Shown: positions 6,379-61,221 of the stretch, in pieces
How the letters are laid out: every line of letters begins with the position of its first letter
How positions within the stretch are numbered: position 1 is the first letter of the stretch
NCBI GenBank assembly: GCA_020636535.1
Contig: JACJXT010000011.1
Location: 1,316,812 to 1,380,811, forward strand
Direction: 5' to 3'
Length of the DNA: 64,000 nucleotides
Origin: Chitinophagales bacterium
Lineage (GTDB): Bacteria > Bacteroidota > Bacteroidia > Chitinophagales > JADIYW01
The notes under the pieces: model-generated
The model's database searches: none
Told to the model about the DNA's origin: nothing
Seen by the model: only the letters and a program-made list of their open reading frames with translations
Position numbers and translations under genes: made by a program

Positions 6379-6390
6379 AAAAATTGGTGG

Positions 6391-6574: not shown

Positions 6575-6575
6575 A

Positions 6576-6611
6576 CCCAAATATACGCAATAAAATAACT
6601 TGCGTATATTT
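6576..6611. repeat. mini-palindrome related to the R2 (CCCAAAT...) MITE ends; may also act as a + strand terminator
   Basis: CCCAAATATACGCAA-N9-TTGCGTATATTT followed by TTTTTT. The - strand reads TATATTTG (6578-6585), a Bacteroidetes -7-like box facing the R4 element and the HNH gene. Confidence 0.5.
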
Positions 6612-6761
6612 TTTTGCTAAAAATATTTTTTGTTTATAATGTTTTTATTCTCAATACTATATAAAAGATATGTTTTTGCGTATTTTAAATATATTCCATT
6701 GCCTGTTTGCTACTTTATTAGTGGGAAATACTTAGAATACGCAATATGCTTTGGTAGAAAT

Positions 6762-7020
6762 ATAGCATGAAGATGACTTCATACTATACTGAAGATGGCT
6801 TCATACTATACTGAAGATGGCTTCATACTATACTGAAGATGACTTCATACTATACTGAAGATGCTTCATGCTATACTGAAGATGCTTCATACTATACTGA
6901 AGATGACTTCATACTATACTGAAGATGACTTCATACTATACTGAAGATGACTTCATACTATACTGAAGATGACTTCATACCATACTGAAGATAACTTCAT
7001 ACTATACTGAAGACAACTCA
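6762..7020. repeat. tandem array of 11 full units of 21-22 bp (plus partial ends); each unit is a small hairpin
   Basis: The unit GAAGATGACTTCATACTATACT starts at 6769, 6791, 6813, 6835, 6857, 6878, 6899, 6921, 6943, 6965 and 6987. CTTCA-N8-TGAAG forms a hairpin across unit junctions. There are only point variants and no spacers. Confidence 0.95.
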
Positions 7021-7087
7021 ATCATTTTAGATTCCGTATATTTTTTGTTCCTCAAAATTACGGAAGGGTGGCAGTTTATTAAGTAAA

Positions 7088-7232
7088 GTGTTTTTTGATT
7101 TAGGAGATACTTTGTTCGTTTCCTCATTCAGTATAGGCAGTTGGTGGTAAAGAGTTGCTCTAAGTAAAATGTAATTTAATAAAACCGTCTATTGCAAGAT
7201 TTTGTGAAGCATGAATAAAATTGTGGCAATCT
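7088..7232. repeat. R1-family intergenic hairpin repeat
   Basis: GTGTTTTTTGATTTAGGAGATACTTTGTTCGTTTCCTCATTCAGTATAGGCAG ... AAACCGTCTATTGCAAGATTTTGTGAAG...AATTGTGGCAATCT. The two arms are imperfect inverted repeats. It matches 55295-55440 and 55518-55575. Confidence 0.7.
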
Positions 7233-7288
7233 CCAACTTCAGAATGCTAACAATAGATTTAAGTTAATAGCTATTCTTTTCTACAACC

Positions 7289-9940: not shown

Positions 9941-10285
9941 CTATTTCACTTGATTTACGATTGCTTCGAAAGCAGCAGGATCATTTAAAGCAATATCAGC
10001 TAATGCTTTTCTATTTAATTCTACTCCAGCTACTTTTAGCTTGTTCATCAATACAGAATACGACATACCATGCAATCTTGCAGCAGCATTAATTCTGGTA
10101 ATCCATAAACTTCTAAAATCTCTTTTTTTAAGTTTTCTGCCTGTATAAGCATAACCTAAACCTTTTTCAACAGCATTTTTGGCTACTGTCCATACATTTT
10201 TTCTTCTGCCAAAATACCCTTTGGCTTGTTTTAATACTTTTTTCTTTCTTGCTTTTGCAGCAACTGCATTGGTTGACCGTGGCAT
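9941..10285 (-). CDS. rplT: 50S ribosomal protein L20
   Basis: 114 aa, starting [30 protein letters not shown]..., the canonical L20 sequence. Confidence 0.95.
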
Positions 10286-10312
10286 AACTTTCTATTTTTA
10301 TTGTTTAACAAT

Positions 10313-10510
10313 TTAATTCAACACCAATAATCTTTTGGCGTTGTCCATATCAGCCGTATGCACTAGGCCTGAATGGGTTAATCTTTTCTTTTGCTTTTTA
10401 GTCTTCTTCGTTAAGATATGTCTCTTATAAGCTTTATTTCTTTTTATTTTACCACTTCCGGTAACTTTAAATCTTTTCTTTGCACTAGAGTTTGTCTTTT
10501 TCTTTGGCAT
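10313..10510 (-). CDS. rpmI: 50S ribosomal protein L35
   Basis: [24 protein letters not shown]... The start is moved to the internal ATG at 10510, giving 65 aa, the usual L35 length. Confidence 0.9.
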
Positions 10511-10760
10511 GACTTCTACTTTATTTATAATCAATAAGTTTTACCTACTTTCAGGTAAAGCGAGTGCAAAGATAGTATTTTATTTTATAAAACTATAATG
10601 CTCTAATGTAAATTCATCGTAAAATATTAAATTCTATTGATGCCTTAAAAATCTTTAATTGCATATCACCTCTACATGCTGAATTTATTTCAGCATCTTC
10701 TTTAAAAAGGTTAACTATGTAGATTCTGAGACAAGTTTAGAATATAACATCGTAAAATAT

Positions 10761-12095
10761 TTAACGATTAAATGACAATTGCAATCCTTTTTGGCTTTCA
10801 TCAAAAATACCATTATTATAAGCTAAGTGTCCACTTACAAAAGTATAATTTACTTTTCCTTTTATAGTCTGATTTTCAAAAGGCGACCAAGCACATTGGT
10901 ATAAAATATTGTCTTTATTTACTTGCCACAATTGATTAATATCTACGATAGCAATATCTGCGAAATAACCTGCTCTTAAATAACCTCTATTGTTAATTTT
11001 AAAACATTGAGCAGGAGCATGGCTCATCTTTTCTACAATTTTTTCCAAACTTATTAATCCACGATGATAAAAATCTAACATAATATTTAAACTATGTTGT
11101 ACCAAAGGAACACCAGATGGAGCTTGCCAATAGTACTGTTGTTTTTCTTCCCAAGTATGTGGAGCATGGTCAGTTGCTATAATATCTAATCGATTATCTA
11201 ATAACGCTTTCAATAATGCATCTTGATTTTCTTTTGATTTTATGGCAGGATTACATTTAATGAGATTGCCATATTGTGCATAATCATTAGCATTAAAATA
11301 CAAATGATGTACACATACTTCAGAAGTAATTTTTTTATCACTCAAAGAAAGTGCATTATCAAACAAAGCCAATTCTTTTTCAGTAGAAATATGCAAAATG
11401 TGCAGTCTTGTTTGATGTTTCTTGGCTAAATCAACAGCAAAAGAAGAAGATAAATAACACGCTTCATCATCTCTTATAATTGGATGAATTGCTGCTGTAG
11501 CACTATCACCTAATTTTTGTTGGTAATAAGCATTTCTTTCTTTTACTCTGTTTTCATTTTCGCAATGTGTAGCAATAAGCATTGGTGTATTAGCAAAAAT
11601 TTTGCTTAGTGTGTGTTCATTATCTACCAACATATTACCAGTAGAAGAACCCATAAAAATTTTAATACCACAAACTTCTTTGGTCGAAGTACGCATCACT
11701 TCATCGTAATTGTCATTACTAACACCCATAAAAAATGAGTAATTAGCCAGTGATGTATTTTTGCCAATTTGGTACTTATCTTCTAGTAGTTGTTGAGTTA
11801 AAGCAGGAGGTTTAGTGTTTGGCATTTCCATAAAAGAAGTTGTGCCACCAGCTACTGCTGCTTTGGCTTCGTTATAAATATGTGCTTTATGAGTTAAACC
11901 AGGTTCTCTAAAATGCACTTGGTCGTCAATAATTCCAGGAATGACATATTGATTCTGAGCATCAATTATAGTAGCAGTATCGTGTGAAATATCACTATCA
12001 ATTTTACTAATAATTTGGTCTTCAATTAATATATCTTGCTGTATAATTTTTCCTTCGTTTACTACTTGTCCGTTTTTTATTAAATATCTTTTCAT
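10761..12095 (-). CDS. pyrC: dihydroorotase-type cyclic amidohydrolase
   Basis: 444 aa. Metal-binding DDQVHFREPG (HxH) and ATDHAPH motifs of the type I dihydroorotase/allantoinase family are present. Confidence 0.78.
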   Translation of the reverse strand: MKRYLIKNGQVVNEGKIIQQDILIEDQIISKIDSDISHDTATIIDAQNQYVIPGIIDDQVHFREPGLTHKAHIYNEAKAAVAGGTTSFMEMPNTKPPALTQQLLEDKYQIGKNTSLANYSFFMGVSNDNYDEVMRTSTKEVCGIKIFMGSSTGNMLVDNEHTLSKIFANTPMLIATHCENENRVKERNAYYQQKLGDSATAAIHPIIRDDEACYLSSSFAVDLAKKHQTRLHILHISTEKELALFDNALSLSDKKITSEVCVHHLYFNANDYAQYGNLIKCNPAIKSKENQDALLKALLDNRLDIIATDHAPHTWEEKQQYYWQAPSGVPLVQHSLNIMLDFYHRGLISLEKIVEKMSHAPAQCFKINNRGYLRAGYFADIAIVDINQLWQVNKDNILYQCAWSPFENQTIKGKVNYTFVSGHLAYNNGIFDESQKGLQLSFNR

Positions 12096-15669: not shown

Positions 15670-16098
15670 TTACAACTGTTGCTTCGCTTTAAAAGCAATG
15701 GCATAATTTTTCATTTGTTTTACCATACTTACTAAACCATTGGCTCTAGTAGGAGACAAGTGTTCTTTTAATCCAATTTGGTCTAAAAAATATAAATTGG
15801 TATTTAATATTTCATCTGCACTATGATTAGACAATACTTTTACCAATAAACCAACAATACCTTTGGTAATAATAGCATCGCTGTCGGCTTTAAAAATAAT
15901 ATGGTTGTTATTTTCTTCTGCTACCAACCATACTCTAGATTGACAACCTTTAATGAGATTCTCTTCGGTTTTATATTGTTCTTCTAATGTTTGTAATGAC
16001 TTACCAAATTCAATTAAATATTCGTACTTGTCGTTCCAATCTTCAAACATAGCAAAATCATCTATAATGCTGTCTTGTATTTCGTTAATGGTGTTCAT
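15670..16098 (-). CDS. sufE: SufE-family cysteine desulfuration protein
   Basis: 142 aa with the active-site context IKGCQSRVWL. It is the last gene of the suf cluster. Confidence 0.85.
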   Translation of the reverse strand: MNTINEIQDSIIDDFAMFEDWNDKYEYLIEFGKSLQTLEEQYKTEENLIKGCQSRVWLVAEENNNHIIFKADSDAIITKGIVGLLVKVLSNHSADEILNTNLYFLDQIGLKEHLSPTRANGLVSMVKQMKNYAIAFKAKQQL

Positions 16099-16505
16099 TG
16101 TTTTGATATTATATTTATAAATTCGTTAATAGTAATTATATTATGCTTTGGAAATGTAATATTTTTAATTATGTTAAAGTCTTTATCATTAGTGACTAAA
16201 TAGTTGCTCTTACTTGTATAGTAAATGTCTAAGAATTTATTATCATCTTTATCTTTTAAAATATCACTTTTAAAAAGCGGTTCTATTTTTATTACATTTG
16301 GTAGAATAAGTAGTGAGGTAATAAAATTATTTGCAATTGTTTTATTAAAATTTTGCTGTAGCTTTTCTTCGTATTCTAATAAAATTTCATTAGAAATATA
16401 AAGTTCATACTTTCCTTCAAATAATTTTTGTATTATAGAATGTGCCTTTGATTTTATATATATGGAAGATAAAATAATATTTGTATCAACTACAACTCTT
16501 AACAC
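16095..16505 (-). CDS. PIN-domain toxin (VapC-like), paralogue 1
   Basis: 136 aa with MLRVVVDTNIILSS, ISNEILLEYEE, DDNKFLD and LVTNDKDF acidic-residue blocks. It is about 40% identical by eye to 21152-21571, and its stop overlaps the sufE start by 4 nt. Confidence 0.75.
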   Translation of the reverse strand: MLRVVVDTNIILSSIYIKSKAHSIIQKLFEGKYELYISNEILLEYEEKLQQNFNKTIANNFITSLLILPNVIKIEPLFKSDILKDKDDNKFLDIYYTSKSNYLVTNDKDFNIIKNITFPKHNIITINEFINIISKQ

Positions 16506-19911: not shown

Positions 19912-20271
19912 TTAATTATTTAATGATTTTTTTGATGTAGCTATAATTTTAGCTGTAATTTTTCTTATTTCTAATAATTTTTCTATTAATTTTGTACAAT
20001 TTGGATAGTTTTCTGAATGTTCACATATCAATAACCAATATTCAGTTTCTTCAATTTCTTTTGCTGCGATTTTCACTTTATGTATAAAATCCTTTTTACT
20101 TTCTGCATTTTGTGCTTCTCTTAAATTTGCACCTATTGATGTGCCAGATTTTAATAATTGATTGGCAATTACATATTTTCTATCTTTCTCTAATAATTCT
20201 ACATAACTTACAATCAGTAAAGCAAATTGAAATGTTTTTTGAATGATAATATTATTTTCTATCCTTTTCAT
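19912..20271 (-). CDS. four-helix-bundle protein (23S rRNA intervening-sequence protein / Avd-like family)
   Basis: 119 aa. QLLKSGTSIGANLREAQNAESKKDFIHKVKIAAKEIEETEYWL matches the family signature (TIGR02436-like). Confidence 0.8.
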   Translation of the reverse strand: MKRIENNIIIQKTFQFALLIVSYVELLEKDRKYVIANQLLKSGTSIGANLREAQNAESKKDFIHKVKIAAKEIEETEYWLLICEHSENYPNCTKLIEKLLEIRKITAKIIATSKKSLNN

Positions 20272-21151: not shown

Positions 21152-21571
21152 TTAGCGAATTTCATTTGATGTTAATAATGCTATAAATTCAGTTATATTG
21201 AGGATGTTTAGTACAGGAAATGAACTTTGTTTTAAAGCATTAAAATGTTTATCATTTGTAACTAAAATAGCATTGTTTTGTAAAGCACAATCTACAAACT
21301 TATTATCATCTATATCAGAATTTATTAATTGCCATTTATAATGTATAGTTGAAAATATTGTTGTTGGATTGATTAAAACTGCATTAATAAAAAAATCTGC
21401 TGTTTGAGCATTATATTTTTTTTTTAAGATTTCTTCATACTCTAATAAAATTTCATTAGAAATACATAAACAAAACGCATCATTAAAATAAGATTCAATA
21501 ATAGCATGATAAGCAGATGTACTTGCTAATGAACTTACAATGATATTGGTATCTAAAACTATTTGCAACAT
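21152..21571 (-). CDS. PIN-domain toxin (VapC-like), paralogue 2
   Basis: 139 aa with MLQIVLDTNIIVSS, ISNEILLEYEE, DDNKFVD and LVTNDKHF. It is a paralogue of 16095-16505. Confidence 0.75.
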   Translation of the reverse strand: MLQIVLDTNIIVSSLASTSAYHAIIESYFNDAFCLCISNEILLEYEEILKKKYNAQTADFFINAVLINPTTIFSTIHYKWQLINSDIDDNKFVDCALQNNAILVTNDKHFNALKQSSFPVLNILNITEFIALLTSNEIR

Positions 21572-23469: not shown

Positions 23470-23891
23470 GTAAAACCACTTTAAAGTTAAGCCAAGCTGC
23501 TAAAAAACTAAGCCAGTTAATTAAAAATGTAAACCGAGTCACTTCAAATCCAAACCAAGTTAGGATAAAACCTAAGCTGACTTATGTTTTAAGTAGGTAG
23601 GTGTACTTAAAACACTAATCAAGTTAAGGTAAAAAGTAAACCAAGTTTAGTTAAAACATTAAGCCAATTTATGTTTGAGGTGGTATATACCACTTGTATA
23701 AGTAGGTAAGTCTACTTAAAACCCAAACCAAGTTAGGGTAAAAGGTAAACTGAGTTAATGTTTTAAGTGGGGTGGAGTACTCAAAATCTAAGTGAAACTG
23801 ACAAAATGGGTGGCTACCCCCCCTTCCGAAGTGGGGGTGGGTACTTCTGAAGTGGAGTAAATTGTTAATTTTATGCCAAAATGGCAGTTTT
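23470..23891 (+). repeat. R3 modular repeat region A (candidate long structured ncRNA)
   Basis: Reiterated modules ...ACTTAAAA(C)CCAAACCAAGTTAGGRTAAAA...AAGCTGRCTTATGTTTTAAGTGG.... The conserved 3' module is AAACTGACAAAATGGGTGGCTACCCCC-hairpin-GTACTTCTGAAGTGGAGTAA, then TGCCA-AAA-TGGCA plus TTTT. No ORF of 60 aa or more is listed for 23285-24102. Confidence 0.8.
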
Positions 23892-24102
23892 AGTGTGTTT
23901 TGTTTTAGTAAGGAAGAATGACGAAGCTATCTCTCTTTACCAACAGCGTAGCAATTTAACCTTTTTGTTATTAATAAAGAGATATTTTGTTCGTATCTCA
24001 CCCAATATAAATGGAGATAAAAATATATTTTTCATTTTTAGTATAGTAAAATAATATAGATTAAAAATATTTATTACCTTGTTGAGGAATTAATTAATAT
24101 TT

Positions 24103-27100
24103 ATGAAACAGCTATTGAGTTTTTTATTGGTATTTATAATTGTTGGTACTGCCAACGCTCAAACCAATGAGATTATAAAAATAAATTGGGATAAAACTAT
24201 TGGTGGTAATAGAAATGAAGGTGGTCTTACGAGTAAGACATTTATATTGTTGTTTGATAGCAGAGTTTATATGGGAGGAACTTCAAATTCTTTAGCAAAT
24301 TCTATTAAATCAGAAAGTAGTACTAATGATGATTATTGGGCATATAAATTAGAACCTAATAGTGGTAATATAATATGGGAAAATACTATAAAAGGAAATA
24401 ATTCAGATAAACTTACAAGTATTAATAGTTATGCTTTTGGTACAGCATTAGGTGGAATATCAAATTCTACGATAGGAAATGATAAAACAGAAAACTCAAG
24501 AGGTGGTAATGATTATTGGATTGTAGGTGTAGATGCAGATGGTGTTTTTAATTGGGATAAAACTTTTGGTACAAATCAAGATGATTCATTAGTAACAATA
24601 ATACAATCAGCTTCTAATACTTCAATGTTACGAGCCAACCTAATAGCTGCTGGAAATACTACAGCTGGTATCTCTGGTGATAAAACTATTGCTAATAAAG
24701 GAGGAGCAGATGTTTGGTTAGTAGAGTTTGAAACTCAAAGAAGAATTTTTCCTTCTGGTTGGAACTTAACAAAAATAAGAGATATTTCTATAGGCAGTAT
24801 AGGAAATGATTATCTAAAATCTATGCTAAAAACTGATGATAAAGGATATTTATTAGGAATACAAAGTAATTCTATTTTTGGTGATAGATTTACAGATTTT
24901 TATGGTGGTTATGATTATTGGTTAGTAAAACTAGATTCTAATCTTAATATAGAATGGCAAAAAAGCTATGGTGGCTCAAGTGATGATTATATCAATCAGA
25001 TTTTAGATTTAGACAATGGCAACTTTTTATTAGTAGGAACTTCTTTTTCTGGCTTTTCTGGTAATAAAACAAATGGTCATTTTGGAAATGGCGATACTTG
25101 GGTAATTAAAATTAATAGTACTGGCAATATTTTATGGCAAAGAACACTAGGTTCTACAGCTACAGAAAGCGAAGCAACAAGTATAAGAATTTATAATAAT
25201 GATGAAAGAAAAAATTATTATATAATAGCATCAACTGCTACAAGTACTGTTTCTGGCAATAAAACAGTAAGTGGTTATGGTGCTAAAGATATTTGGATTG
25301 TAAAATTAAATGAAACTGGTGAAATTGTTAGTCAAGGTATGTTAGGTGGAGAACAAGACGAATATAGCCCAACGCTTAGCAAAGGCGATTTAAGTGCGAT
25401 TGGAGAACAAGATATAATTTTAGCTTGTGTTTCCAACTCAAATGCAAGTGGCTTAAAAACAGAAAATAATTATGGTGGTGGTGCTGTAAATAATGAAACA
25501 GATTTTTGGACAGTTAATTTTAATTTTGAAAAAACAAATCCAACAGCTCCTTTAACTGGTAAAGTATATAACGATTTTGCTAATGATTGTAATTATGTTT
25601 TTGGATTAGATCAACCAATTAGTGGATTTTTAGTAAGAGATAATACATCAGGTAATTACTGTGTTACTAATCAAAATGGAGAATATCAATTGCCAGTAGA
25701 TTCTGGTAGTCACGAAATTGAACTATTAATTCCTCATCAATTTGAAAATATTTATACAACATACAATTGTCCAACAAATGGAAAATTAAGTATTAATATA
25801 AATAATATTGATAATATTCCTGTTAATAATAATTTTTTTATTGATAATAAAAGATGTGTCATATTAAACATAGATATATCGTCTGATAGAAGAAGAAGAT
25901 GCTTAAAAAGTCTTACAGTTGTTAATTATTCTAATATAGGTAATGAAAATGCAAACAATGTTAAAGTTTATGTGCAGATGCCAGAATTTGTAAGAATATT
26001 AGCAGCTAATAAACCATATACTCAAATTAATGAAAATACATACGAATTCTTAATCGACAATATTGCTTATGGACAATCAGGAATAATTAGAATAGTAGAT
26101 GAAACACTATGCGAAAGTGGTATTGCTGGTCTTACACAATGTACCAAAGCTTGGATTACACCTAAAAATGAATGCTTTAATAATTTAGATACTGCAGTTA
26201 CTAGTTGGGATAAAAGCTCGATAGCAGTAAGTGGAAGTTGTACTTCCTACAGAGTACAGTTTGTTATTAAAAACAACGGAGAAGATATGCAAGATTCTTC
26301 CGAATATAGAATCTATCAAAATAGCCAATTAGGTCGTACTGCTAATTTTAAATTACTAGCAGGTGATAGTATTATTATTAATCTTCAAAACAATGGAGCA
26401 ACTTATAGAATAGAAGCAGATCAATCGTATGGTCATCCAGGAAATTCTCATCCAACATATACTGTAGAAGCTTGTGCATTACCAGCTAATCGTGGTTACT
26501 ACAACGATCTACCACAAGACGATGAAGATTATGAAGTAGCTGAAGAGTGTTTGCCAATTATAGACAGCTACGATCCAAATGACAAACAAGTGCAACCAAA
26601 AGGAAGTGGAGAAAATGGTCAGTTGTACAGAAATTCAACTTTACATTATACCATTCGTTTTCAAAACACAGGAACAGATACAGCATACAAAGTAGTAGTG
26701 ATTGATACACTCGATGCCAATTTAGATATTACTACGCTCATGTTTGGAGCATCATCACATACTTACGATTTTGAGTTTGTAGGAAACACCAATTATATCG
26801 TTTTAAAATTTACATTTAATGATATCAACTTGCCAGATTCTACGACCAATGAGTTGGCAAGTAATGGTTTTTTAAGTTTTAGTATCAAACCACACGATAC
26901 CATTTCAAATGGAATTACCATTCAAAACAATGCAGATATTTATTTTGATTTTAATGATCCAATTAAAACCAATACCACTTCAAATTTAATGGACGATAGA
27001 TTTCCTACAACGAATAATTTATTGATTATAACAGCAATTAATAATGATAAAAATTCAGAGTTAGTACAAGTATATCCAAATCCATTTAGTAATGAAGTTA

Positions 27101-27297
27101 CATTCTCGTTTAAACAAAATTCGCAAGCATATCAAATACAAATTATATCAATTGATGGAAAAGCTATAAAAGAAGAAATAATTAATTCAAATATAGTTTC
27201 CTTTGGTATAAATAATATTGCCAATGGAATGTACTATTACAAAATACTAGACAAAAAAGGAAATATCATTAATAACGGGAAATTAGTAAAACAGTAA
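24103..27297 (+). CDS. large secreted protein with a T9SS C-terminal sorting domain
   Basis: 1064 aa with a signal peptide. The N-terminal half has reiterated GG.(D/N)DYW.VK.D..G...W blades, which look propeller-like. The C-terminus VQVYPNPFSNEVTFSF...ANGMYYYKILDKKGN fits the type-A T9SS sorting-domain pattern. Confidence 0.8.
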   Translation: MKQLLSFLLVFIIVGTANAQTNEIIKINWDKTIGGNRNEGGLTSKTFILLFDSRVYMGGTSNSLANSIKSESSTNDDYWAYKLEPNSGNIIWENTIKGNNSDKLTSINSYAFGTALGGISNSTIGNDKTENSRGGNDYWIVGVDADGVFNWDKTFGTNQDDSLVTIIQSASNTSMLRANLIAAGNTTAGISGDKTIANKGGADVWLVEFETQRRIFPSGWNLTKIRDISIGSIGNDYLKSMLKTDDKGYLLGIQSNSIFGDRFTDFYGGYDYWLVKLDSNLNIEWQKSYGGSSDDYINQILDLDNGNFLLVGTSFSGFSGNKTNGHFGNGDTWVIKINSTGNILWQRTLGSTATESEATSIRIYNNDERKNYYIIASTATSTVSGNKTVSGYGAKDIWIVKLNETGEIVSQGMLGGEQDEYSPTLSKGDLSAIGEQDIILACVSNSNASGLKTENNYGGGAVNNETDFWTVNFNFEKTNPTAPLTGKVYNDFANDCNYVFGLDQPISGFLVRDNTSGNYCVTNQNGEYQLPVDSGSHEIELLIPHQFENIYTTYNCPTNGKLSININNIDNIPVNNNFFIDNKRCVILNIDISSDRRRRCLKSLTVVNYSNIGNENANNVKVYVQMPEFVRILAANKPYTQINENTYEFLIDNIAYGQSGIIRIVDETLCESGIAGLTQCTKAWITPKNECFNNLDTAVTSWDKSSIAVSGSCTSYRVQFVIKNNGEDMQDSSEYRIYQNSQLGRTANFKLLAGDSIIINLQNNGATYRIEADQSYGHPGNSHPTYTVEACALPANRGYYNDLPQDDEDYEVAEECLPIIDSYDPNDKQVQPKGSGENGQLYRNSTLHYTIRFQNTGTDTAYKVVVIDTLDANLDITTLMFGASSHTYDFEFVGNTNYIVLKFTFNDINLPDSTTNELASNGFLSFSIKPHDTISNGITIQNNADIYFDFNDPIKTNTTSNLMDDRFPTTNNLLIITAINNDKNSELVQVYPNPFSNEVTFSFKQNSQAYQIQIISIDGKAIKEEIINSNIVSFGINNIANGMYYYKILDKKGNIINNGKLVKQ

Positions 27298-47023: not shown

Positions 47024-47488
47024 TTTTGCTTTTATCGGTCGGTGTCTTCACCGACCAGTTTTTTTTATATTGTGCAGCTAGATATTGTGTGCTGTTAGAA
47101 GTTTCCTTCTGACATTTTTTCGAGTGTATCACCAAACAAAATCATCTATTTTTTATTGAACTTATAAGGATTTTGAATACAAAATATATGCCTACGCTTT
47201 CACTAATCACTTATATTAATTGCAATGATATTCAACGCTGTTTTGATTTGCTTTTATCGGTCGGTGTCCTCACCGACCGAAATATTTTTCGTGCTGTCAG
47301 AAGTTTCCTTCTGACATTTTTTCGAGTGTATCACCAAACAAAATCATCTATTTTTTGTTGAACTTATAAGGATTTTGAATACAAAATATATGCCTACGCT
47401 TTCACTAATCACTTATATAGATTGCAATGATATTCAACGCTGTTTTGATTTGCTTTTATCGGTCGGTGTCTTCACCGACAGAAATATT
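47017..47488 (+). repeat. tandem duplication (about 202-bp unit, 2 copies) that reiterates the purM 3' end and terminator hairpin three times
   Basis: The unit boundaries GTGCTGT(T/C)AGAAGTTTCC are at 47089 and 47291. ATCGGTCGGTGTC(T/C)TCACCGAC is at 47034, 47256 and 47458. Each unit also carries the hairpin GTCAGAAG-TTTC-CTTCTGAC followed by ATTTTTT. Confidence 0.9.
47037..47066 (+). terminator. intrinsic terminator after purM
   Basis: 8-bp GC-rich stem GGTCGGTG/CACCGACC with a 4-nt loop, then AG plus T8, 14 nt after the stop. Confidence 0.8.
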
Positions 47489-54377: not shown

Positions 54378-55286
54378 CGATTGTTTTTTAGCTTGCTTAG
54401 TTAAGTAATTTAAAACACCTAAAGAAATTATAAGTATTTGATTTATATTGTATTAGTTGCATATTTTAGTAACTTAATAAGTGCGTAGTACTTTAACTTT
54501 ATTAGAAATGATAGAAAATTTATAAAATACAGCGTAGCTGTATCACCTTTAATATCTGTTTAAATTTAGATTGTTGATAAACGGTATTTTATAATAGCTT
54601 TTAACTCGAACTCAGGTTAATATAAGCCGAGCCACTTAAAATCCAAACCAAGTTAAGTTAAGAACTAAGCTGGCTTATGTTTTTGCTAAATTGAGTAATA
54701 AAAATACTAAACTATGGTACTTTATAAGTGTACTCGGTCGCTTTTTAAACTCAGTCAGTTAAGTAATAATATAAGCCGAGCCACTTAAAAACCAAACCAA
54801 GTTAGGTTAATAACTAAGCTGGCTTATGTTTTTGCTAAATTGAGTAATAAAAATGCTAAGCTATGGTACTTTGTAAGTGTACTCGGTCGCTTTTTAACTC
54901 AGTTAGTTAAGTAATAATATAAGTCGAGCTACTTAAAAACCAAACCAAGTTAGGGTAATAACCAAGCTGGCTTATGTTTAAAGTGGCTATGGGTACTTAT
55001 ACAAGTGGAAGAAGGGGACTTAAAAGATAAACTTAGTTGAGTTAAAACATTAATGTAGTTTAGGTTTAAAGTGGTATCCTGTACTTCTATAAGTGGGTTG
55101 GTATACTTAAAACCTAAACCAAGTTAGGGTAAAAACTAACTCAGCTTATGTTTTAAGTGGGGTGAGCTACTTAAAAACTAAGTAAAACTGACAAAATAGG
55201 TGGCTACCCCCACTTCGGAAGGGGGTTAGCGTACTTCGGAAGTGGAGTAAGTGACTAAATTTGTGCCAATATGGCAGTTTTTTTTT
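54378..55286 (+). repeat. R3 modular repeat region B (candidate long structured ncRNA), with three units of about 149 bp in tandem
   Basis: Units start with TATAAG(C/T)CGAGC at 54621, 54770 and 54918. The modules and 3' module (AAACTGACAAAATAGGTGGCTACCCCC...GTACTTCGGAAGTGGAGTAA) are the same as in region A. It ends with TGCCA-ATA-TGGCA plus T9 (55278-55286). An R2 fragment is inserted at about 54478-54550. Confidence 0.8.
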
Positions 55287-55294
55287 ATTTTTCG

Positions 55295-55440
55295 TTTTAG
55301 TAAGGAGATACTTCGTTTGTTCCTCACTTAGTATAGACGGTTGGTTAAAAATGGCTCTCGATACTATAAGTAAAATGTAATTGATAATTAGACCGTCTAT
55401 TGCGAAATTTTGAGAGGAACGAACAAAATTGTGGCAATCT
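55295..55440. repeat. R1-family intergenic hairpin repeat
   Basis: TTTTAGTAAGGAGATACTTCGTTTGTTCCTCACTTAGTATAGACGG ... GACCGTCTATTGCGAAATTTTGAGAGGAACGAACAAAATTGTGGCAATCT. The arms are mutually inverted. Confidence 0.7.
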
Positions 55441-55517
55441 GAATCGTTAGACTGCTATAAAGTATATTGCTTCGCTACTTTCATCCGTTCGCAAAGACGA
55501 GGATTATTTTAGTTGTT

Positions 55518-55620
55518 GTGTTTTTGATTTAGGAGATACTTCGTTCGTTCCTCACTCAGTATAGACGGTTAGTTGATGGTGAGACAGAGTTCTCTATCGA
55601 GTAACTCTGATGGGTGAGAA
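55518..55620. repeat. R1-family partial copy plus the CAGAGTT...AACTCTG hairpin
   Basis: GTGTTTTTGATTTAGGAGATACTTCGTTCGTTCCTCACTCAGTATAGACGG, then the hairpin CAGAGTTCTCTATCGAGTAACTCTG (55585-55609) and GATGGGTGAGAA, as at 1498-1538. Confidence 0.65.
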
Positions 55621-55637
55621 GTTGTGCAACGGTCACC
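55621..55637. repeat. 17-mer GTTGTGCAACGGTCACC (copy 2), downstream of the methyltransferase stop
   Basis: Identical to 4229-4245. It lies 33 nt from the stop at 55671; copy 1 lies 19 nt from the stop at 4265. Confidence 0.8.
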
Positions 55638-55670
55638 GATGTTAGGCACAGTCGTTTTTTTCGTTAAGTT

Positions 55671-57656
55671 TTACACAAGTTCTAATTCAATACTTTCAAT
55701 TTGTTCTTTGGATGCTTGTCGCAATTCAAATGCTTTTTTCATTTTATTACTAATGTCCTCAATTGTTTTTTGTTCTGGCAAATGAATAATGATGTTTGCC
55801 AAGTCAATGTCTGAAACATTTGGAATGGCTGCACCTGTACGATACATAAACATTTGCTTCAAAAACATTTCCGATTTCAAATAATAAAGCAAATAATATT
55901 TGTCAATTTGAAAGTTACGCAAAACTCTAAAACCATTGGTACAAATACTTCCTGCAAACTCGTCTATTACAAAGGCTGTTGCGTGTTTTCGTGTTCCTAC
56001 GGAATTTCCTGCAATCGCCGTAATGATGTCACCTTGTTCAATTTCATAACTTGCTCTACTTGGCAATTCGTGAACTTGGTGAGTTGTTGAATTGATAATT
56101 TCGTATGAATGAGTATTGATGTCCGAAAGTTCAACATATTCAACAGTCAAATTCGGGTCTTTTAGTTTTCTGCTTTTTATTTTCACGATTTCACAAATAT
56201 CTCCCAAGCGAACTGTTTTTGTGTTATTCAAATTAGAAAACATTTTACGATTTTCGGGCGAATAAAAATCAAAGTCAAAACGTCCATTAAGTTCGTTGAA
56301 TTGGATTGAAAATGCGTTGTCATTTTCCACATTTTTACCTTTTTGAAATGATTTGTATGCTTCAATAATTGTCGAAAAATCTTCGTCTAAAATTGGCTGT
56401 CCATTTTTGTCTTTTATGATTTGTCCGAATTTGTCTTTTTGGTAGAGTGGTGTTCCATTTTTGTTGCCTTGATAACCTAATTTAGTAACTCTACCAAAGA
56501 AAATAGGATATTGACGTTCTTCGTTTTTGCTGTCTTTTTCTAAAAATAACAACGAAGTTTTTACGCCTGTGCCGTATGGAATAAAAGTTTCTTGTGGTAA
56601 ATTCACAATAGCCAAAACTTTTGCTTTTTGCTTGATATAATAACGCAAATATTCCAAAGACGGATTTTCAAAATTTCCGTTTGGCAAAACGATTGCCATT
56701 CTTCCGCCTTCTTTCAAAAGTTGTAAGCAACGTTCAATAAAGAGAATTTCGGCATTTTGATTGGCATAAACTGTTTTAGATTGATAAAATTCCTTTTCAT
56801 GATTTCCCCACTTATGACCCAAGTCAAATTTTGACAAAACAGACGATTGTGTAATTTTTGCACCGAATGGCGGATTAGTTAAAATCAAATCAAAACCATT
56901 TTTTTGACCTAATGAAAGTTTAATACTGTCTAAATCTTCTAATGAATTAGTGCAAAGAATGTTTGTTTTTCCGTTAGCTTCCAAAAGCAATTTCATTTTG
57001 GCAATTCGGGCAATACTTCGATTGATGTCTAAGCCGAAAATGTTTTGTGAAACGGTTTTTGAAGTGTTCAAATTTTGATTGTTTATTTGTAGATATTTCA
57101 AAGCCGACATCAAAAAACCGCCACTTCCACAAGCTGGGTCAATAATTGTTTCGCTTGTTTTTGGTTGCATAATTGCAACGCAAAAATCAATGACAGGCTC
57201 TGGTGTAAAAAATTGTCCTCGTCCGTCTTTCTCGTGGTGCGATAAAAACTTTTGAAAAGCCAATCCTTTTGCGTCTTGCGATGAGTCAAGCAATGAAATT
57301 CCCTGCAATTTATTGACTGTAAAACCAAGAGCGTTTTGACTTAGTTTTATACGGTCGTCCGTATCAAAAATGTCTTTATATTCTTTTTGTGTTTTATCAA
57401 ATAAAGCAGCTATTCGGTCGGAAAATGAAGAAACATTTTTACCCAATTTTATATCATTCCATTCTTCAGAAGAAACGGAAAACTGTTTTAGTTTTTCGTT
57501 TTCGTCAAAAATTTTGATGAACAAAATTTTTACAAACTCCTCCAAAGTTTGTTGCGGAGACAAGCCGTCATTGGCATAAATATAGTCGTGAATTTCCTCA
57601 AACCTTTTTAAAAGGTTATCTTCTTTGGAAAGTTCTATGTCAAATAAAGAATTCAT
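55671..57656 (-). CDS. N6-adenine DNA methyltransferase with a fused C-terminal target-recognition (HsdS-like) domain
   Basis: 661 aa. It has an HsdM-N-like N-terminus (FVKILFIKIFDE), SAM motif I IIDPACGSGGFL and catalytic motif IV LTNPPFG. The C-terminal 190 aa or so starts LGDICEIVK, like a type I S half-domain. Confidence 0.88.
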   Translation of the reverse strand: MNSLFDIELSKEDNLLKRFEEIHDYIYANDGLSPQQTLEEFVKILFIKIFDENEKLKQFSVSSEEWNDIKLGKNVSSFSDRIAALFDKTQKEYKDIFDTDDRIKLSQNALGFTVNKLQGISLLDSSQDAKGLAFQKFLSHHEKDGRGQFFTPEPVIDFCVAIMQPKTSETIIDPACGSGGFLMSALKYLQINNQNLNTSKTVSQNIFGLDINRSIARIAKMKLLLEANGKTNILCTNSLEDLDSIKLSLGQKNGFDLILTNPPFGAKITQSSVLSKFDLGHKWGNHEKEFYQSKTVYANQNAEILFIERCLQLLKEGGRMAIVLPNGNFENPSLEYLRYYIKQKAKVLAIVNLPQETFIPYGTGVKTSLLFLEKDSKNEERQYPIFFGRVTKLGYQGNKNGTPLYQKDKFGQIIKDKNGQPILDEDFSTIIEAYKSFQKGKNVENDNAFSIQFNELNGRFDFDFYSPENRKMFSNLNNTKTVRLGDICEIVKIKSRKLKDPNLTVEYVELSDINTHSYEIINSTTHQVHELPSRASYEIEQGDIITAIAGNSVGTRKHATAFVIDEFAGSICTNGFRVLRNFQIDKYYLLYYLKSEMFLKQMFMYRTGAAIPNVSDIDLANIIIHLPEQKTIEDISNKMKKAFELRQASKEQIESIELELV

Positions 57657-57705
57657 ATATTACACATTTGTGTCAAAAATAAAACACAAATGTGTAATAC
57701 GCAAA

Positions 57706-58653
57706 TTATCTTCCGTCTAATTGACTTTTATCTAGTTTTCTATACTTCGGTTTTGTTTCTTGAATACACAAATCAAGGTCGTCATACCAAGGTTTTAAAA
57801 GTTTGTGTCTTTGGAAATTGTCTTTTGCAGTCAAAATATCAATCGTATAATTTTGTTGCAAATGATTGGGAGACTTGGCTTGATGATTCAAGTCGGTACT
57901 ATTTACAAAAACCAATTCGTGTTTTCCTGTTTTCAAAAACAAATCCACACATAAAATATTAAATTCAGAAACCAAAGGTCCTGTGCTTTTAATTTTTGTT
58001 TTTGTATCTATTCTTGTCGATGGCATATGCGTTTGCAATAAACGAATTGGTGCGGTCAAATCCCAATAAGCATTTTCGTTAAAATCTTCTTCTTTGAATG
58101 ATTTTAACCATTTAGCAATGTCCTCTTTTGAGTTCCAAAGTCCTGTTAAATCAGGAACTCCTGCACCCGGATTTTCTTTACTCCAACGAAATTTCGGAAA
58201 GTTACCCGCATTTTTCTGTTCCCAATTGACTTTTGCTTTTTCGTAATTTCGACTGCCCGAATTGTAAATGCTTTCAATTTGCTTTTTTCTCTCAATTGAA
58301 TGTTTATTGAGTAATGTCAAACAAGAAGAAATTTTTGTTAAACCGCTTCTTTTTTCGGAATTAGATTTTACTCCTTTACACTCCACTACTAACCATTCAT
58401 CTTTAGTTGACCCAATTTTACGAATATAAAAATCCCCTCTTGCATCATCACTTTTTGCATTATTTCCTCCTTCGGGTTTTTCTTTTATTCTTAACGCTTC
58501 GTAACCAATAGAGTTAGCATATTCTTTAAAAAGTTCTTCTCCAAGATTTCCTAAAATGTAGCCTTCTGCTCCTGGACTTTTGATAAGTACTTCCAAAAAT
58601 TTGTTTTCATCAATACCGAATTTGCGATTGATATAGTTTTTTAATAAATCCAT
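57706..58653 (-). CDS. putative PD-(D/E)xK restriction endonuclease
   Basis: 315 aa. GDFYIR...(17 aa)...VVECKG fits D...ExK. It sits between an XRE controller-like gene and the methyltransferase. Confidence 0.6.
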   Translation of the reverse strand: MDLLKNYINRKFGIDENKFLEVLIKSPGAEGYILGNLGEELFKEYANSIGYEALRIKEKPEGGNNAKSDDARGDFYIRKIGSTKDEWLVVECKGVKSNSEKRSGLTKISSCLTLLNKHSIERKKQIESIYNSGSRNYEKAKVNWEQKNAGNFPKFRWSKENPGAGVPDLTGLWNSKEDIAKWLKSFKEEDFNENAYWDLTAPIRLLQTHMPSTRIDTKTKIKSTGPLVSEFNILCVDLFLKTGKHELVFVNSTDLNHQAKSPNHLQQNYTIDILTAKDNFQRHKLLKPWYDDLDLCIQETKPKYRKLDKSQLDGR

Positions 58654-58655
58654 TA

Positions 58656-58862
58656 TTAGTCTTTAAATAGTTCTGTAATTGGAACATTTAAAGCAATGGC
58701 AAGTTTTTCTGCAATAACGATTGATACGTTCCTTTCGCCTTTTTCAATGCTTGGAATGTATGTCCTGTCGATTTCAGCAATTAATGCAAGTTTCTCTTGT
58801 GATAGACCTTTTTCTAATCGCAGACGTTTTAAGTTATTGCCAAATTTTTGCTTAATGTCCAT
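58656..58862 (-). CDS. XRE-family HTH regulator (controller C-protein-like)
   Basis: Start set at the ATG at 58862 (MDIKQKFGNNLKRLRLEKGLSQEKLA...), giving 68 aa. It has a classic HTH_3 pattern, and its stop abuts the endonuclease start. Confidence 0.75.
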   Translation of the reverse strand: MDIKQKFGNNLKRLRLEKGLSQEKLALIAEIDRTYIPSIEKGERNVSIVIAEKLAIALNVPITELFKD

Positions 58863-58981
58863 AGCACAAAAGTCTCTATTTGTAGAAAACTGTACAACGG
58901 ACAATCATCAACTTTTTTGCTTTGTTTGGATTTATTTTTGAAAAGATTGAATTTTATGCGGTTCGTTCATACGATTGTGCA

Positions 58982-59165
58982 TAACGGAGGGCGGATTTGC
59001 GAAGTCCTGAAGCGTGTAACGAAGTTACACAAAGCGAAAGGATTTTGCAAATCCGCTGATGTGTTGAAGGTCGTAGCGACAGCGAAGACCGTTCGACGCA
59101 TCAGCGGATGTAATCCGCCCTCCGATGTGCAAAAGACGCAGCGGTAGCGGAGACTTTTGCACATC
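58982..59165 (+). repeat. R4 GC-rich structured element, copy 2
   Basis: Identical to 6391-6574 except G58987 (T in copy 1) and C59122 (A in copy 1), which pair with each other in the closing helix. Confidence 0.9.
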
Positions 59166-59290
59166 GGTCTCGGGTATGAAACGTAGGGCATTTCGGAGCC
59201 GCGTACTTGTCCACCGAGACTAAGCTTGCTTAGAACCCGAAACTTGCGGAATCCACTGTCCGCCCTATGTTTTATACTGTATCGTCCTAA
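59166..59290 (+). other. GC-rich extension of R4 copy 2 (absent from copy 1), possibly the rest of the same structured element
   Basis: GGTCTCGG...CCGAGAC (8/7 bp), CTAAGC-TT-GCTTAG, GTAGGGC...GCCCTAT and GGAGCCGC...GCGGAATCC can pair, and some pairings cross (pseudoknot-like). It ends at an A-run. The same position in copy 1 holds the mini-palindrome 6576-6611. Confidence 0.4.
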
Positions 59291-59348
59291 AAAAAGTTTA
59301 CAGTTATTTAGTTAAATACTGATATAGGTTTACAGTTCAAATATAATC

Positions 59349-60257
59349 CTAAAATAGGTTTACAGTTTGTTTTCTTTGGTAATAATTTTTCCATTTTTTT
59401 TCTATTTTAATTGTTTGATTTTGATGTACTAAACTCGGTACTAAATTTCCTATACTCATATGTGGTCTATCTTCATTATATAGTTTTATTACTTGGTCTA
59501 ATAATATCTTGGCTTCTGTTATATTTCTTAGATCATAATGGTCTAAATATTCTTCTTTCAAGATACCATTTACTCTCTCTGCTATTGCATTTTCTAATGG
59601 ATCACCATTCTCTGTCATGCTAACATCTATGCTGTTTTGCTGTAGCAGATTTACATATTTATGACTGCAATATTGTACACCTCTATCGCTGTGATGTATA
59701 AGTGAGCTATTGAGCTTTGTATCTAATGGTAAAAGTGCCATTTTTAATGCTTTTAAACTACTGTCTGCATCAAGTGTTTCAGATAAATGATAACCTACTA
59801 TTTTATGACTGTAAGCATCTGTAATTAAGCTAATATACACATATCCTATATTTATCTTCCAATATGTAATATCACTGACATACAATTGATTAGGTTTTGT
59901 TGGAGTTAAGTCTTTTATTAAGTTTGGATACTTCTTTAGCCAATGGTGCGACTGAGTTGTTTTAATATTGCTGCGTCTTTTTCGTATCAACAAATTATAT
60001 TGTGATAGCAAGTTAAACAAAGCATCTCTACCCATTTTTATTTGGTGTGATAACATAAATGCTTCTAACATTATATACAATTTTCTAGTACCTATTCTTG
60101 GATGATATTGACGGATTTTTAATACCTCTTTTATTATTAATTCCTGTTGAAGTGCTGTGTTAACAGCTTGGTTGAAGTGCTGATAATATGCCTGTCGTGT
60201 AATACCAAACAATCGGCATAGCTTTGCGAATCCTATATATTGATGTCGTGCTTTCAT
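59349..60257 (-). CDS. IS3-family transposase OrfB (DDE integrase core)
   Basis: 302 aa. rve-type blocks YVSDITYW, HSDRGVQY and ENAIAERVNGILKEE (D, D, E) are present. Confidence 0.88.
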   Translation of the reverse strand: MKARHQYIGFAKLCRLFGITRQAYYQHFNQAVNTALQQELIIKEVLKIRQYHPRIGTRKLYIMLEAFMLSHQIKMGRDALFNLLSQYNLLIRKRRSNIKTTQSHHWLKKYPNLIKDLTPTKPNQLYVSDITYWKINIGYVYISLITDAYSHKIVGYHLSETLDADSSLKALKMALLPLDTKLNSSLIHHSDRGVQYCSHKYVNLLQQNSIDVSMTENGDPLENAIAERVNGILKEEYLDHYDLRNITEAKILLDQVIKLYNEDRPHMSIGNLVPSLVHQNQTIKIEKKWKNYYQRKQTVNLF

Positions 60258-60664
60258 TTCTTGGATTGTTTGGTGTTTGACTTTTTTCTAATACTAATTT
60301 TTAATTCTTTTTCAGCTACTTCTATCATGGTGTCTAATGCTGTGGCTCGTAATTCTGAGTTTAATAATGCTTTTTCTAATTGCTCAATTCGTTGTTTTAA
60401 TTCAATGTTTTCTAGTGGTTCATTGCTCTTTATCATAAATATTTCTTTGTTTGGTAATTTACGCCATTTAGGTACCATATCATATCCTAATTGACGCATC
60501 CATTTGAGTAACGAACCATGTTCCTCTTTATGTCCTGTATATTTTTCCCATATATCTCTCTTCTTACAGCCTGTTCTAAGATATTCTTCTATAATATACT
60601 TCCGTTCCTCTATAGTAAAATCTCTTGGTGATTTTTGTCCTAAAATAATTTGTCTTTTTTTCAT
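60254..60664 (-). CDS. IS3-family transposase OrfA (HTH)
   Basis: 136 aa with an N-terminal HTH region and a leucine-zipper-like C-terminal half. It ends just after the slippery site. Confidence 0.85.
   Translation of the reverse strand: MKKRQIILGQKSPRDFTIEERKYIIEEYLRTGCKKRDIWEKYTGHKEEHGSLLKWMRQLGYDMVPKWRKLPNKEIFMIKSNEPLENIELKQRIEQLEKALLNSELRATALDTMIEVAEKELKISIRKKSNTKQSKK
60281..60287 (-). promoter_or_regulatory. programmed -1 ribosomal frameshift site (A AAA AAG) joining OrfA and OrfB
   Basis: The - strand reads AGA AAA AAG in the OrfA frame, 24 nt before the OrfA stop. OrfB is open in the -1 frame. Confidence 0.6.
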
Positions 60665-60711
60665 TTTTTTACACTCTTTTTGCTTATTAATTGTGTAAAC
60701 CTATTTTAGGA

Positions 60712-61035
60712 CAAGACATTTACGGAAGACCTGAAAAACTATTTTGTTCGGTAAAATGTAAAAGTTACTATCATTATCAATTAAGAAAGACAACTAATAT
60801 TGAAGCTGAAAATATTGATAAAATATTACATAGAAATAGATCTATTTTGTTAGAGATTTTGGGTAAACGATTAACGCAGAAAAAAGTAAATAGATTGGTA
60901 TTAGAAAATAAGAAGTTTAGGTTTAAATATTTAACTCACTTTCATATTAATAGACATGGTAAAATGTATCATTGTATTTATGATTTTGCTTGGATGGAGT
61001 TTTCGGATGATGCAGTTTTAATTGTAAAAAGATAA
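60712..61035 (+). pseudogene. 5'-truncated zinc-ribbon family gene, cut by the IS3 element
   Basis: The frame is open from the IS3 boundary: ...DIYGRPEKLFCSVKCKSYYHYQLRK...FRFKYLTHFHINRHGKMYHCIYDFAWMEF. The expected N-terminal CxxC half of the ribbon is missing and is not found on the other side of the IS. Confidence 0.6.
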
Positions 61036-61221
61036 ACTGTTTTTTATAGCACAATTTGCATAAGGGTATAGAACGGAAAGCCCACAGCGACGATAGGAGC
61101 GAGGACTTGTAGTGATAGCCCGACCGTAATGTAATGGAGGTTATGCCATGAACTTAGTTTTTAGTCATTTCTCAATAGTTATTTATATTTGCAATTATTA
61201 CATATAAAAATAAGTGTATAA

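Follow-up and report, generated by a model that had tools for sequence, protein, structure and literature searches.

Background

A complete integron consists of intI, which encodes a tyrosine recombinase with an IntI-specific insertion, and an attI site beside an array of gene cassettes. Some integron cassettes are gene-less (i.e. they lack an open reading frame, ORF), and the attC sites of sedentary chromosomal integrons, e.g. the VCRs of Vibrio, are uniform. Elements that target attC sites include group IIC-attC introns and the IS1111-attC group, for which a degenerate footprint at array termini has reportedly been described, whilst class 1 integrons are carried by Tn402/Tn5053-type transposons with 25-bp inverted repeats and 5-bp duplications. 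Integron gene cassettes and their attC sites also occur away from an integrase, either as attC clusters (CALIN) or as single attC sites (SALIN) (PMC4889954, PMC9024848; Loot et al., bioRxiv 10.1101/2022.09.11.507474). Few complete integrons were found in Bacteroidota in the IntegronFinder 2.0 survey (PMC4889954, PMC9024848), an association between introns and integrons has been described (PMC7923331) and ORF-less integron cassettes are cited in a passage of PMC8618304 (reference 16 therein). Here, two accessory islets are described in 64,000 nucleotides of a Chitinophagales bacterium (GCA_020636535.1, contig JACJXT010000011.1), this whole stretch being termed the window. Both islets are probably short arrays of integron-type gene cassettes without an adjacent integrase (i.e. 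CALIN-like), carried on the minus strand. Coordinates are those of the whole 64-kb stretch and the cassettes and attCs are read on the minus (gene) strand.

As in integrons and CALINs, the cassettes are bounded at G|TT, with the inverse core (....AAC) and the core (GTT....) providing the sole invariant bases. Each attC is an imperfect hairpin kept in structure and not in sequence, and the cassette start is complementary to the cassette's own inverse core. Further likenesses to integrons are the same-strand arrays of compact, mostly promoterless genes formed by relatives and a defence-type cargo (i.e. restriction-modification, nuclease and toxin-immunity genes). The lack of a nearby integrase and the presence among related loci (denoted by L numbers) of lone cassettes at secondary sites (L076) are shared with CALINs and SALINs. 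Unlike integrons and CALINs as described, the host belongs to the Bacteroidota, neither IntI nor attI was seen in the data, the core is an extended palindrome (GTTGYRCAAC), terminal attCs are stem-less and a gene-less structured unit is interleaved. As no tyrosine recombinase was found among the window ORFs scanned, the islets are CALIN-like and not a complete integron. The system itself (i.e. integron-type cassettes without a neighbouring integrase) is already known, and is found here in a host group where little has been described.

Cassette boundaries in the two islets

A first-pass annotation of the window had described two cassettes bracketed by short direct repeats, interpreted as possible att-like core sites of a cassette-insertion system. 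An exact search located the 17-mer GTTGTGCAACGGTCACC at 4229–4245 and 55621–55637, with no third copy, at distances of 19 nt (4246–4264) and 33 nt (55638–55670) from the stop codons of an Rnl2-type RNA ligase gene and a methylase gene, respectively. The related sequence ATTGTGCATAACGG at 58974–58987 is fused directly to a structured element (SE), and the weaker versions in islet 1 were also found where described (i.e. ATTGGTGGTAACG at 6383–6395 and GGGCAACGGC at 5311–5320). The window contains three matches to the 17-mer with ≤3 mismatches, as compared to 0.03 expected from shuffles, and ten matches to the 12-mer core with ≤2 mismatches, as compared to 2.15 expected. The earlier interpretation was partly supported, its att-like alternative being essentially right: the motifs correspond to R'/R'' core boxes (G|TT ... 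AAC) of integron-type attCs, and the cassettes carry a circular-permutation signature, with several details requiring correction. Both ATTGTGCATAACGG and ATTGGTGGTAACG are junctions between an SE and a cassette start (SE...CG|TTATGCACAAT and SE...CG|TTACCACCAAT, respectively), and GGGCAACGGC is the R' of an attC. The direct repeats flanking the restriction-modification (RM) cassette are present; they are, however, not target duplications bracketing one cassette but successive crossover cores of one recombination-site family, which look like direct repeats because the palindromic core (GTTGYRCAAC) reads alike on either strand.

Islet 1 had been treated as a single cassette but contains two, with a complete attC in between. 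The HNH-endonuclease cassette (5317–6393) starts at G|TTACCACCA and carries one gene (5449–6378; Pfam HNH and HNH_5), whose 309-aa product has a C-terminal HNH nuclease domain; the inverse core TGGTGGTAAC lies 5 nt beyond the stop codon. Its complete attC (5311–5446) runs from GGTGGTAAC through an AT-rich imperfect hairpin to AGCC-G|TTGCCC and includes GGGCAACGGC. The Rnl2-type RNA ligase cassette (4238–5316) starts at G|TTGCCCATA, has a single gene (4265–5275; Pfam RNA_ligase and T4_Rnl2_C) and an inverse core, TACAGGCAAC, at 4250–4259. In islet 2, the RM cassette (55630–58984) starts at G|TTATGCACA (within ATTGTGCATAACGG), with its inverse core TGTGCCTAAC at 55641–55650. Its three genes encode a helix-turn-helix controller (58656–58862), a 315-aa protein without a Pfam match that is a putative nuclease by position only (57706–58653) and a fused N6-methylase/specificity protein (55671–57656), the first and last being assigned by Pfam.

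Complementarity was assessed between the first 10 nt of each cassette and the inverse core within 45 nt of the stop codon. The HNH cassette exhibited a match of 10/10 (start GTTACCACCA, inverse core TGGTGGTAAC; P = 0.0004), the RM cassette 9/10 (GTTATGCACA and TGTGCCTAAC; P = 0.0014) and the Rnl2 cassette 8/10 (GTTGCCCATA and TACAGGCAAC; P = 0.013). Among 11 cassettes of an array in another Chitinophagales genome, five had a perfect 10/10 match and the mean was 8.8, as compared to 6.5 for non-self pairs. Such a match between a start and the inverse core of the same unit marks integron cassettes, recombined at G|TT, as circular permutations. GCCTAAC and GGCAAC are found in the inverse cores of the RM and Rnl2 cassettes, respectively, and the HNH attC reads GGTGGTAAC...G|TTGCCC; the purine/pyrimidine pattern of R'' and R' (RYYYAAC, GTTRRRY) is kept only loosely in this attC family. 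Use of the plus strand as the top strand, such that the SE would be the cassette's own attC and the genes would be reversed, was rejected, as complementarity was only 3/10 in cassette 1, whose two genes are separated by an attC on the minus strand.

Membership of an attC family

A covariance model was built from 16 attCs of four other genomes, without any window sequence, and this home-made model from related arrays was used in place of that of IntegronFinder. Only AAC and GTT were invariant across the aligned sites (16/16), and compensatory changes were present in 15 of the 16 predicted stem pairs. The consensus contains unpaired columns inside the stem. The model matched 5311–5446 on the minus strand over its full length (57.6 bits, E = 1.4e-12), and the DNA fold of this HNH attC had a z score of -2.1. 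A weak end-to-end match was obtained at 4232–4261, overlapping the first 17-mer copy; outside the islets, the scan of the window gave no further match below E 6e-4. Related loci contained 44 sites at E < 1e-3, all on the strand of the cassette genes, including six on a Persicobacter plasmid and seven in one Chitinophagaceae locus.

The 3' part of the attC of an upstream cassette adjoins the second SE copy at 59166–59290 (minus strand); it is GC-rich, ends in ...CATACCCGAGACC|G and is cut by an IS3-family element. This sequence has 89% identity to four copies on plasmid pPP2 of Persicobacter psychrovividus, which lie among small same-strand genes and are bordered by CACAAC...GTTGTG, as in the layout of an integron attC. 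The model recognised pPP2 copies at E values of 9e-8 and 3e-6 but the window copy at only 0.43. A GC-rich stretch at 61048–61150 was rejected as another attC, since it folds no better than shuffles. On pPP2 itself (405 kb; L002, 345716–353832), six attCs of this family lie between small hypothetical genes beside a ParB gene, and constitute an unannotated cassette array.

The idea that these likenesses are accidents of AT-rich intergenic DNA, flanking ordinary chromosomal genes, has a negligible probability. The motifs are short and those of cassette 1 are weak, but independent statistics (i.e. motif counts, complementarity, covariation and the attC model) lie far past chance and the islet genes recur as cassettes in many genomes.

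Related arrays and circulation of the cassettes

A genome scan with the closing stem of the SE produced 67 hits, most of which were chance matches of this GC-rich stem; matches in Candidatus Porisulfidus were discarded as an unrelated 146-nt repeat. True relatives were found in the Chitinophagales metagenome-assembled genome (MAG) HK-STAS-BACT-20, with most SE copies in one 40-kb stretch where almost all genes are on one strand. On the gene strand, the repeating unit of this array is ...CGCG|TTAxxxxxxx, genes, an inverse core (....AAC), a variable hairpin of ~125 nt, a short linker, G|TTGGTC, the SE and then CGCG|TTA.... A metagenome scan detected one contig of the same type as this Chitinophagales SE. 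Viral contigs scanned with patterns from the SE, the attC remnant and the 17-mer gave no match, and a BLAST search with the SE found nothing in phages and, among plasmids, only pPP2, where the match was only to the neighbouring attC remnant. Additionally, a gene-less cassette filled with more than ten TTGCGC(T/C)GACAAAA-like motifs was observed on Chitinophagales contig JACJXU010000010 (~10200–11100; coding 2200–3100 of the assembled tiles).

Same-strand arrays in relatives range from 13 to at least 20 cassettes, the latter in a 22-kb view of one Chitinophagaceae locus that contained no integrase. Homologues of the methylase with 80–96% identity are present in MAGs named Saprospiraceae, Chitinophagaceae, Flavobacterium, Kapaibacterium and others. 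At four loci with flanks available (L071, L073, L079 and L090), the same three-gene RM unit begins at the corresponding G|TT, has its inverse core a homologous distance beyond the stop codon and carries a full attC. In L076 a lone RM cassette with an intact attC is located among housekeeping genes, and in L078 the RM genes remain with no attC left. Rnl2 cassettes elsewhere are 84–89% identical, have full attCs and adjoin unrelated cassettes, indicating that the HNH and Rnl2 genes are not a fixed pair. The RM cassette is often found as a contig of 3.3–3.8 kb (i.e. approximately the cassette length), broken inside a flanking attC or SE (L075, L082, L085, L091–L093 and many more), which suggests that the flanks are repeated, or that the cassette is in several contexts, in those samples.

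Stem-less terminal attCs

At the position of the 17-mer, orthologous RM and Rnl2 cassettes of other arrays have an attC of ~125 nt or 60 nt. The closest RM relative (L085, methylase 96% identical) reads ...CGACTGTGCATAAC ATCGG TTTTGCAAAAGAGCGGG... as compared to ...CGACTGTGCCTAAC ATCGG|TGACCGTTGCACAAC in the window, the two being collinear up to ATCGG and divergent thereafter. Similarly, the Rnl2 cassette reads ...TACAGGCAAC AATGG|TGACCGTTGCACAAC in the window and ...TATGGGTAAC AATTTGTATA... in L089, which has a full attC. Both terminal attCs therefore stop 4–5 nt past the inverse core, at the base of the stem. The subsequent block has the grammar of an attC 3' end, namely a linker (..GACC) followed by G|TT and a core. 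In the first copy (4229–4245), the gene strand reads GGTGACCG|TTGCACAAC, i.e. the 3' linker of the truncated Rnl2 attC and the next G|TT core; the second (55621–55637) comprises the 3' end of the truncated RM attC and the core G|TTGCACAAC. The 17-mer is thus the end of a terminal attC without the whole stem (R''-AxxG|GTGACC-G) plus a further core. This core recurs in the family, as the R'' of one attC of L090 (GTTGTGCAAC) and as GTTGTGCACA and GTTGTGCGAT in the Chitinophagales array. A stem-less site should neither fold nor recombine, so the Rnl2 and RM cassettes are probably fixed; the HNH cassette probably still lies between two complete sites.

The first-pass annotation had also noted a likeness between the 17-mer and the ends of the IS5-family element of the window, and an alternative reading takes the 17-mer as the solo terminal inverted repeat of an IS5-related insertion sequence (IS) or miniature inverted-repeat transposable element (MITE), inserted into or deleted up to each terminal attC, such that IS activity and not cassette recombination would have shaped these ends. 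The likeness to the IS5 end is real, with 13/17 positions shared with the right end and four matches with ≤4 mismatches as compared to ~0.4 in shuffles. An IS5 copy lies in the same orientation 30 nt from the 17-mer, IS5-like ends also begin a repeat termed D7 and both attCs are cut sharply where the shared block begins. Such an event is nevertheless improbable. The 17-mer stands alone, without a second end, partner repeat or target duplication, occurs just twice in 64 kb, each time at the end of a cassette, and in none of 94 other loci, and its flanks are homologous only in the D7 module and a hairpin module, R1. The same bases are explained by attC grammar, the 17-mer block having an exact ..GACC linker, a G|TT and a core seen as an R'' in L090, and GAGACC-GTTG (GAGACCGTTG) also ends ordinary attCs of an unrelated Chitinophagales genome, making the likeness generic to attC 3' ends. 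Moreover, both truncations are at the base of an attC stem, which a random IS event would not produce twice. A single MITE spanning the 3' flanks of both islets was likewise rejected, as homology is limited to the D7, R1 and 17-mer modules. Separately, GAGACCGTTG, which makes up the first 10 nt of the IS5 end (2900–2914, 4184–4198), also terminates two ordinary attCs of that unrelated genome (tiles L024/L058) at their 3' side; this is either a coincidence or a hint that the IS end mimics attC ends.

A gene-less structured element at attC junctions

The SE does not belong to the cassette that follows it but forms a unit of its own, without genes, at the attC junction before that cassette. The start codon of the HNH gene is found 15 nt past SE1. 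Its two copies, SE1 (6394–6574) and SE2 (58985–59165, 181 nt), belong to a 184-nt direct repeat (6391–6574 and 58982–59165) with 99% identity. Both comprise hairpin H (GATGTGCAAAAG...CTTTTGCACATC) and a three-way junction, closed in SE1 by CGTAGGGCGGATT/AATCCGCCCTACG, with an end reading ...CG|TT. The predicted fold is far better than those of shuffles (z = -9.2), and the copies differ solely by a compensatory change of one closing-stem pair (CGTAGGG/CCCTACG in SE1 versus CGGAGGG/CCCTCCG in SE2). Rfam searches at the gathering score over the window and at E values up to 10 over 58800–59400 detected no family for the SE, giving only a tRNA and chance hits. No Bacteroidota-type promoter (TTTG ... 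TAnnTTTG) was seen within the SE on inspection by eye only.

HK-STAS-BACT-20 contains at least 17 SE copies with 97–100% identity, each preceded by the end of an attC and followed by a cassette starting at G|TT. A third variant was found in GCA_039811365.1 (L090) as two copies in the same setting, with the RM cassette as one of the cassettes that follow. When the variant of the window is compared with that of the Chitinophagales genome, nine stem pairs are changed on both sides. The triplet that opens hairpin H is GTT in the Chitinophagales genome, GAT in the window and GAA in L090, with matching changes opposite, indicating that pairing and not a GTT/AAC core is kept at this position; the 3' side is always CG|TT. 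The best-conserved part is the 3' half (TTCGCTT..CTTCG..GCTTC..CTTCGCAAA.CCGCC), which resembles the 3' half of ordinary attCs. Lone SE copies sit in AT-rich spacers, those of SE1 and L038 following terminator-like hairpins. Differences in the SE copy of L001 were set aside as uninformative, being indels in a MAG of the same strain.

In the Chitinophagales genome, the SE behaves as a gene-less cassette, starting with GTTGGTCAAA (TTGGTCAAA after a G), carrying the R'' TTTGACCAAC and ending in CGCG before TT. Similarities to ORF-less cassettes comprise the lack of a credible ORF, a length of 171–184 nt and, in the Chitinophagales variant, a start of TTGGTC after a G, an end of G before TT and an R'' (GACCAAC) complementary to its own start. 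The 97–100% identity of copies within a genome is reminiscent of VCRs, and the branched fold resembles the branched variable terminal structure of long attCs. Unlike an ORF-less cassette or VCR, however, the SE is additional to each cassette's own diverse attC and is not that attC. It also differs from an ORF-less cassette in that the 5' core is GAT or GAA with compensating changes, hairpin H being kept for pairing, the closing stem lacks unpaired bases and copies are also found alone after terminator-like hairpins. As with attC-targeting elements, the SE has a fixed position and orientation at attC ends or other stem-loops, and its array copies lack a target duplication. Unlike IS1111-attC elements and group IIC-attC introns, it encodes neither a recombinase nor a reverse transcriptase, is much too short to be a group II intron and matches no Rfam intron, whilst its flanks share only ...C|...|GTTA and not a long programmed target. 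Assignment as a group IIC intron or an IS110-type bridge-RNA element was rejected on the basis of size, Rfam and the absence of any long conserved target. Most economically, the SE would be an attC-derived gene-less unit, spread by the same recombination system and giving a G|TT landing site.

Weighing of the cassette reading and a model

Several observations weigh against an origin of the islets as integron cassettes. No integron integrase or attI was seen in the window or in related loci, viewed over at most 22 kb, so that the recombinase is inferred. The absence of Pfam domains of the Phage_integrase type from the window ORFs scanned, and from the precomputed annotations of L071–L094 and of L001 and L086 (which cover this region in a MAG of the same strain), in itself fits a CALIN. 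The 5' core of the SE is GAT (window) or GAA (L090) and not GTT, leaving its status as a bona fide cassette full only in the Chitinophagales genome. Both terminal attCs are cut at the same relative position and fused to an identical 16–17 nt, when a 3' linker should be cassette-specific; GGTGACC and the following TTGCACAACT are common to both cassettes, and TGACC occurred once among ~30 attC ends read. Two independent stem deletions are therefore unlikely to have yielded the same 17-mer, and common descent of the block in both islets is more likely, speculatively followed by cassette replacement via microhomology at the conserved AAC-Axx-GG. Finally, perfect 5-bp direct repeats (ACCCA, at 4224–4228 and 6575–6579) border islet 1, a feature that integrase-mediated insertion does not predict.

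These ACCCA copies sit exactly at the ends of the blocks common to both islets, and bear on a different explanation, in which the islets are non-autonomous, transposon-like shells with 17-nt imperfect inverted ends (GTTGTGCAACGGTCACC on one side and, on the other, the outer hairpin H arm GATGTGCAAAAGTCTCC), carrying integron cassettes as cargo and mobilised by a transposase that generates 5-bp duplications. In islet 1 (4229–6574), these two ends match at 13/17 positions as inverted repeats. A shell would account for the whole 17-mer, and not only half of it, being identical in both islets, and the site without the islet and one ACCCA copy is a plausible AT-rich spacer that follows a terminator-like hairpin. 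A cassette array within imperfect inverted repeats, with a 5-bp direct repeat in islet 1, is also found in Tn402/Tn5053-type transposons; unlike these, the islets have no tni or intI genes, the repeats are unrelated in sequence and the duplication is restricted to one islet of two. Islet 2 has GAGAA and GGTCT at the corresponding positions, and SE2, like all SE copies of the Chitinophagales array, is in an ordinary attC context. The inverted-repeat likeness is largely that of the palindromic core common to all sites of the family, no cognate transposase was identified and the 5-bp match was noticed post hoc, with a chance of ~1 in 1000 for fixed boundaries. On balance, a transposon-like shell is unlikely.

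A broader proposal, which is tentative and rather doubtful, is that the SE could be a self-propagating, gene-less, attC-derived unit (171–184 nt; hairpin and three-way junction; conserved CTTCG/CGCT single-stranded motifs) that colonises attC R' junctions and other stem-loops of Bacteroidota. Such a unit could act as a chromosomal landing pad for cassette capture and, together with the 17-mer end, might form a transposon-like shell (13/17 inverted ends, 5-bp duplication of islet 1) that moves small arrays without an integrase.

With integron-type cassettes as the preferred reading, each cassette begins with the TT of a G|TT core and ends with the final G of its own attC. This unit would circularise and be moved by an integron integrase acting at G|TT, which fits the complementarity of start and inverse core. 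Islet 1 comprises SE1, the HNH cassette with its complete attC and the Rnl2 cassette with a truncated attC; islet 2 comprises the attC of a lost or IS3-disrupted cassette, SE2 and the RM cassette with a truncated attC. An IntI-type tyrosine recombinase, encoded elsewhere or since lost, may have moved the cassettes, loss of the attC stem may have fixed the two terminal ones and, in a manner that we infer only, two different cassettes would have come to share an identical remnant.

Repeats and other features around the islets

The order of an R1 hairpin, the 17-mer, cassette genes and SE that had been proposed for both islets is indeed the same, but the spacing differs, with 1 nt between R1 and the 17-mer in islet 2 and ~190 nt in islet 1 once both IS elements are removed. 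These are the IS5-family element (2900–4198, plus strand; Pfam DDE_Tnp_1 and DUF772), which has the ends AAGACCGTTGCAAGG and CCTTTTGCAACGGTCTC, a 5-bp duplication (ATACT) and a distance of 30 nt to the first 17-mer copy, and a second IS at 1597–2847. R1 (CAGAGTT-N11-AACTCTG, ATGGGTGAGA) is located at 1502–1536 and 55585–55619. Its 11-nt loop is reverse-complemented between the copies, the second of which is bordered by near-identical direct repeats (ATGGTGAGA and ATGGGTGAGA). The IS3-family element (59291–60718, minus strand; Pfam rve) interrupts the attC at 59166–59290. Its far flank (60691–61035) is a truncated small ORF and not the rest of this attC, which implies that sequence was rearranged or deleted afterwards.

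Together, repeats D7 and D8 make up a MITE-like unit of ~190 nt (55385–55574) with ends (TAGACCGTCTAT and ATAGACGGTTAG) like that of IS5 with a 3-nt insertion; whole or partial intergenic copies are also present at 1345–1417, 7092–7249, 55279–55346 and 23953–24020. Approximately 14 tandem copies of a 22-nt unit (TGAAGATGACTTCATACTATAC), with a small palindrome inside, lie at 6724–7036 between SE1 and a metX-like gene. Upstream of islet 2, a unit of ~149 nt is present in four tandem copies (54594–55153), with a related copy (23501–23901) upstream of the gene for a 1064-aa protein sorted by the type IX secretion system (24103–27297). A 202-nt tandem duplication with 96% identity was observed at 47082–47485, each copy ending in a GC-rich hairpin (TCGGTCGGTG...CACCGACC). 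Two PIN-domain paralogue genes, which have an 80-nt repeat in common, and a gene for a 23S-rRNA-intervening-sequence-type protein lie among suf Fe-S cluster genes (16095–16505, 19912–20271, 21152–21571); the attC model detected no site beside them.

Implications

The two accessory islets become defined mobile units with base-precise boundaries. The window has only one or two gene cassettes per islet, the RM cassette carrying its own controller-protein region. Interest lies in the host phylum, in how widely the RM cassette circulates, in the terminal sites without stems and in the gene-less element interleaved with the cassettes. One RM cassette circulates via attC arrays, at 80–96% protein identity, among Saprospiraceae, Chitinophagaceae, Flavobacterium and Kapaibacterium, and the sites document an attC family in Bacteroidota. 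On comparative sequence evidence, the combination of stem-less terminal attCs with an interleaved gene-less unit could bear on how cassettes are fixed, and on how arrays are seeded, away from an integrase.

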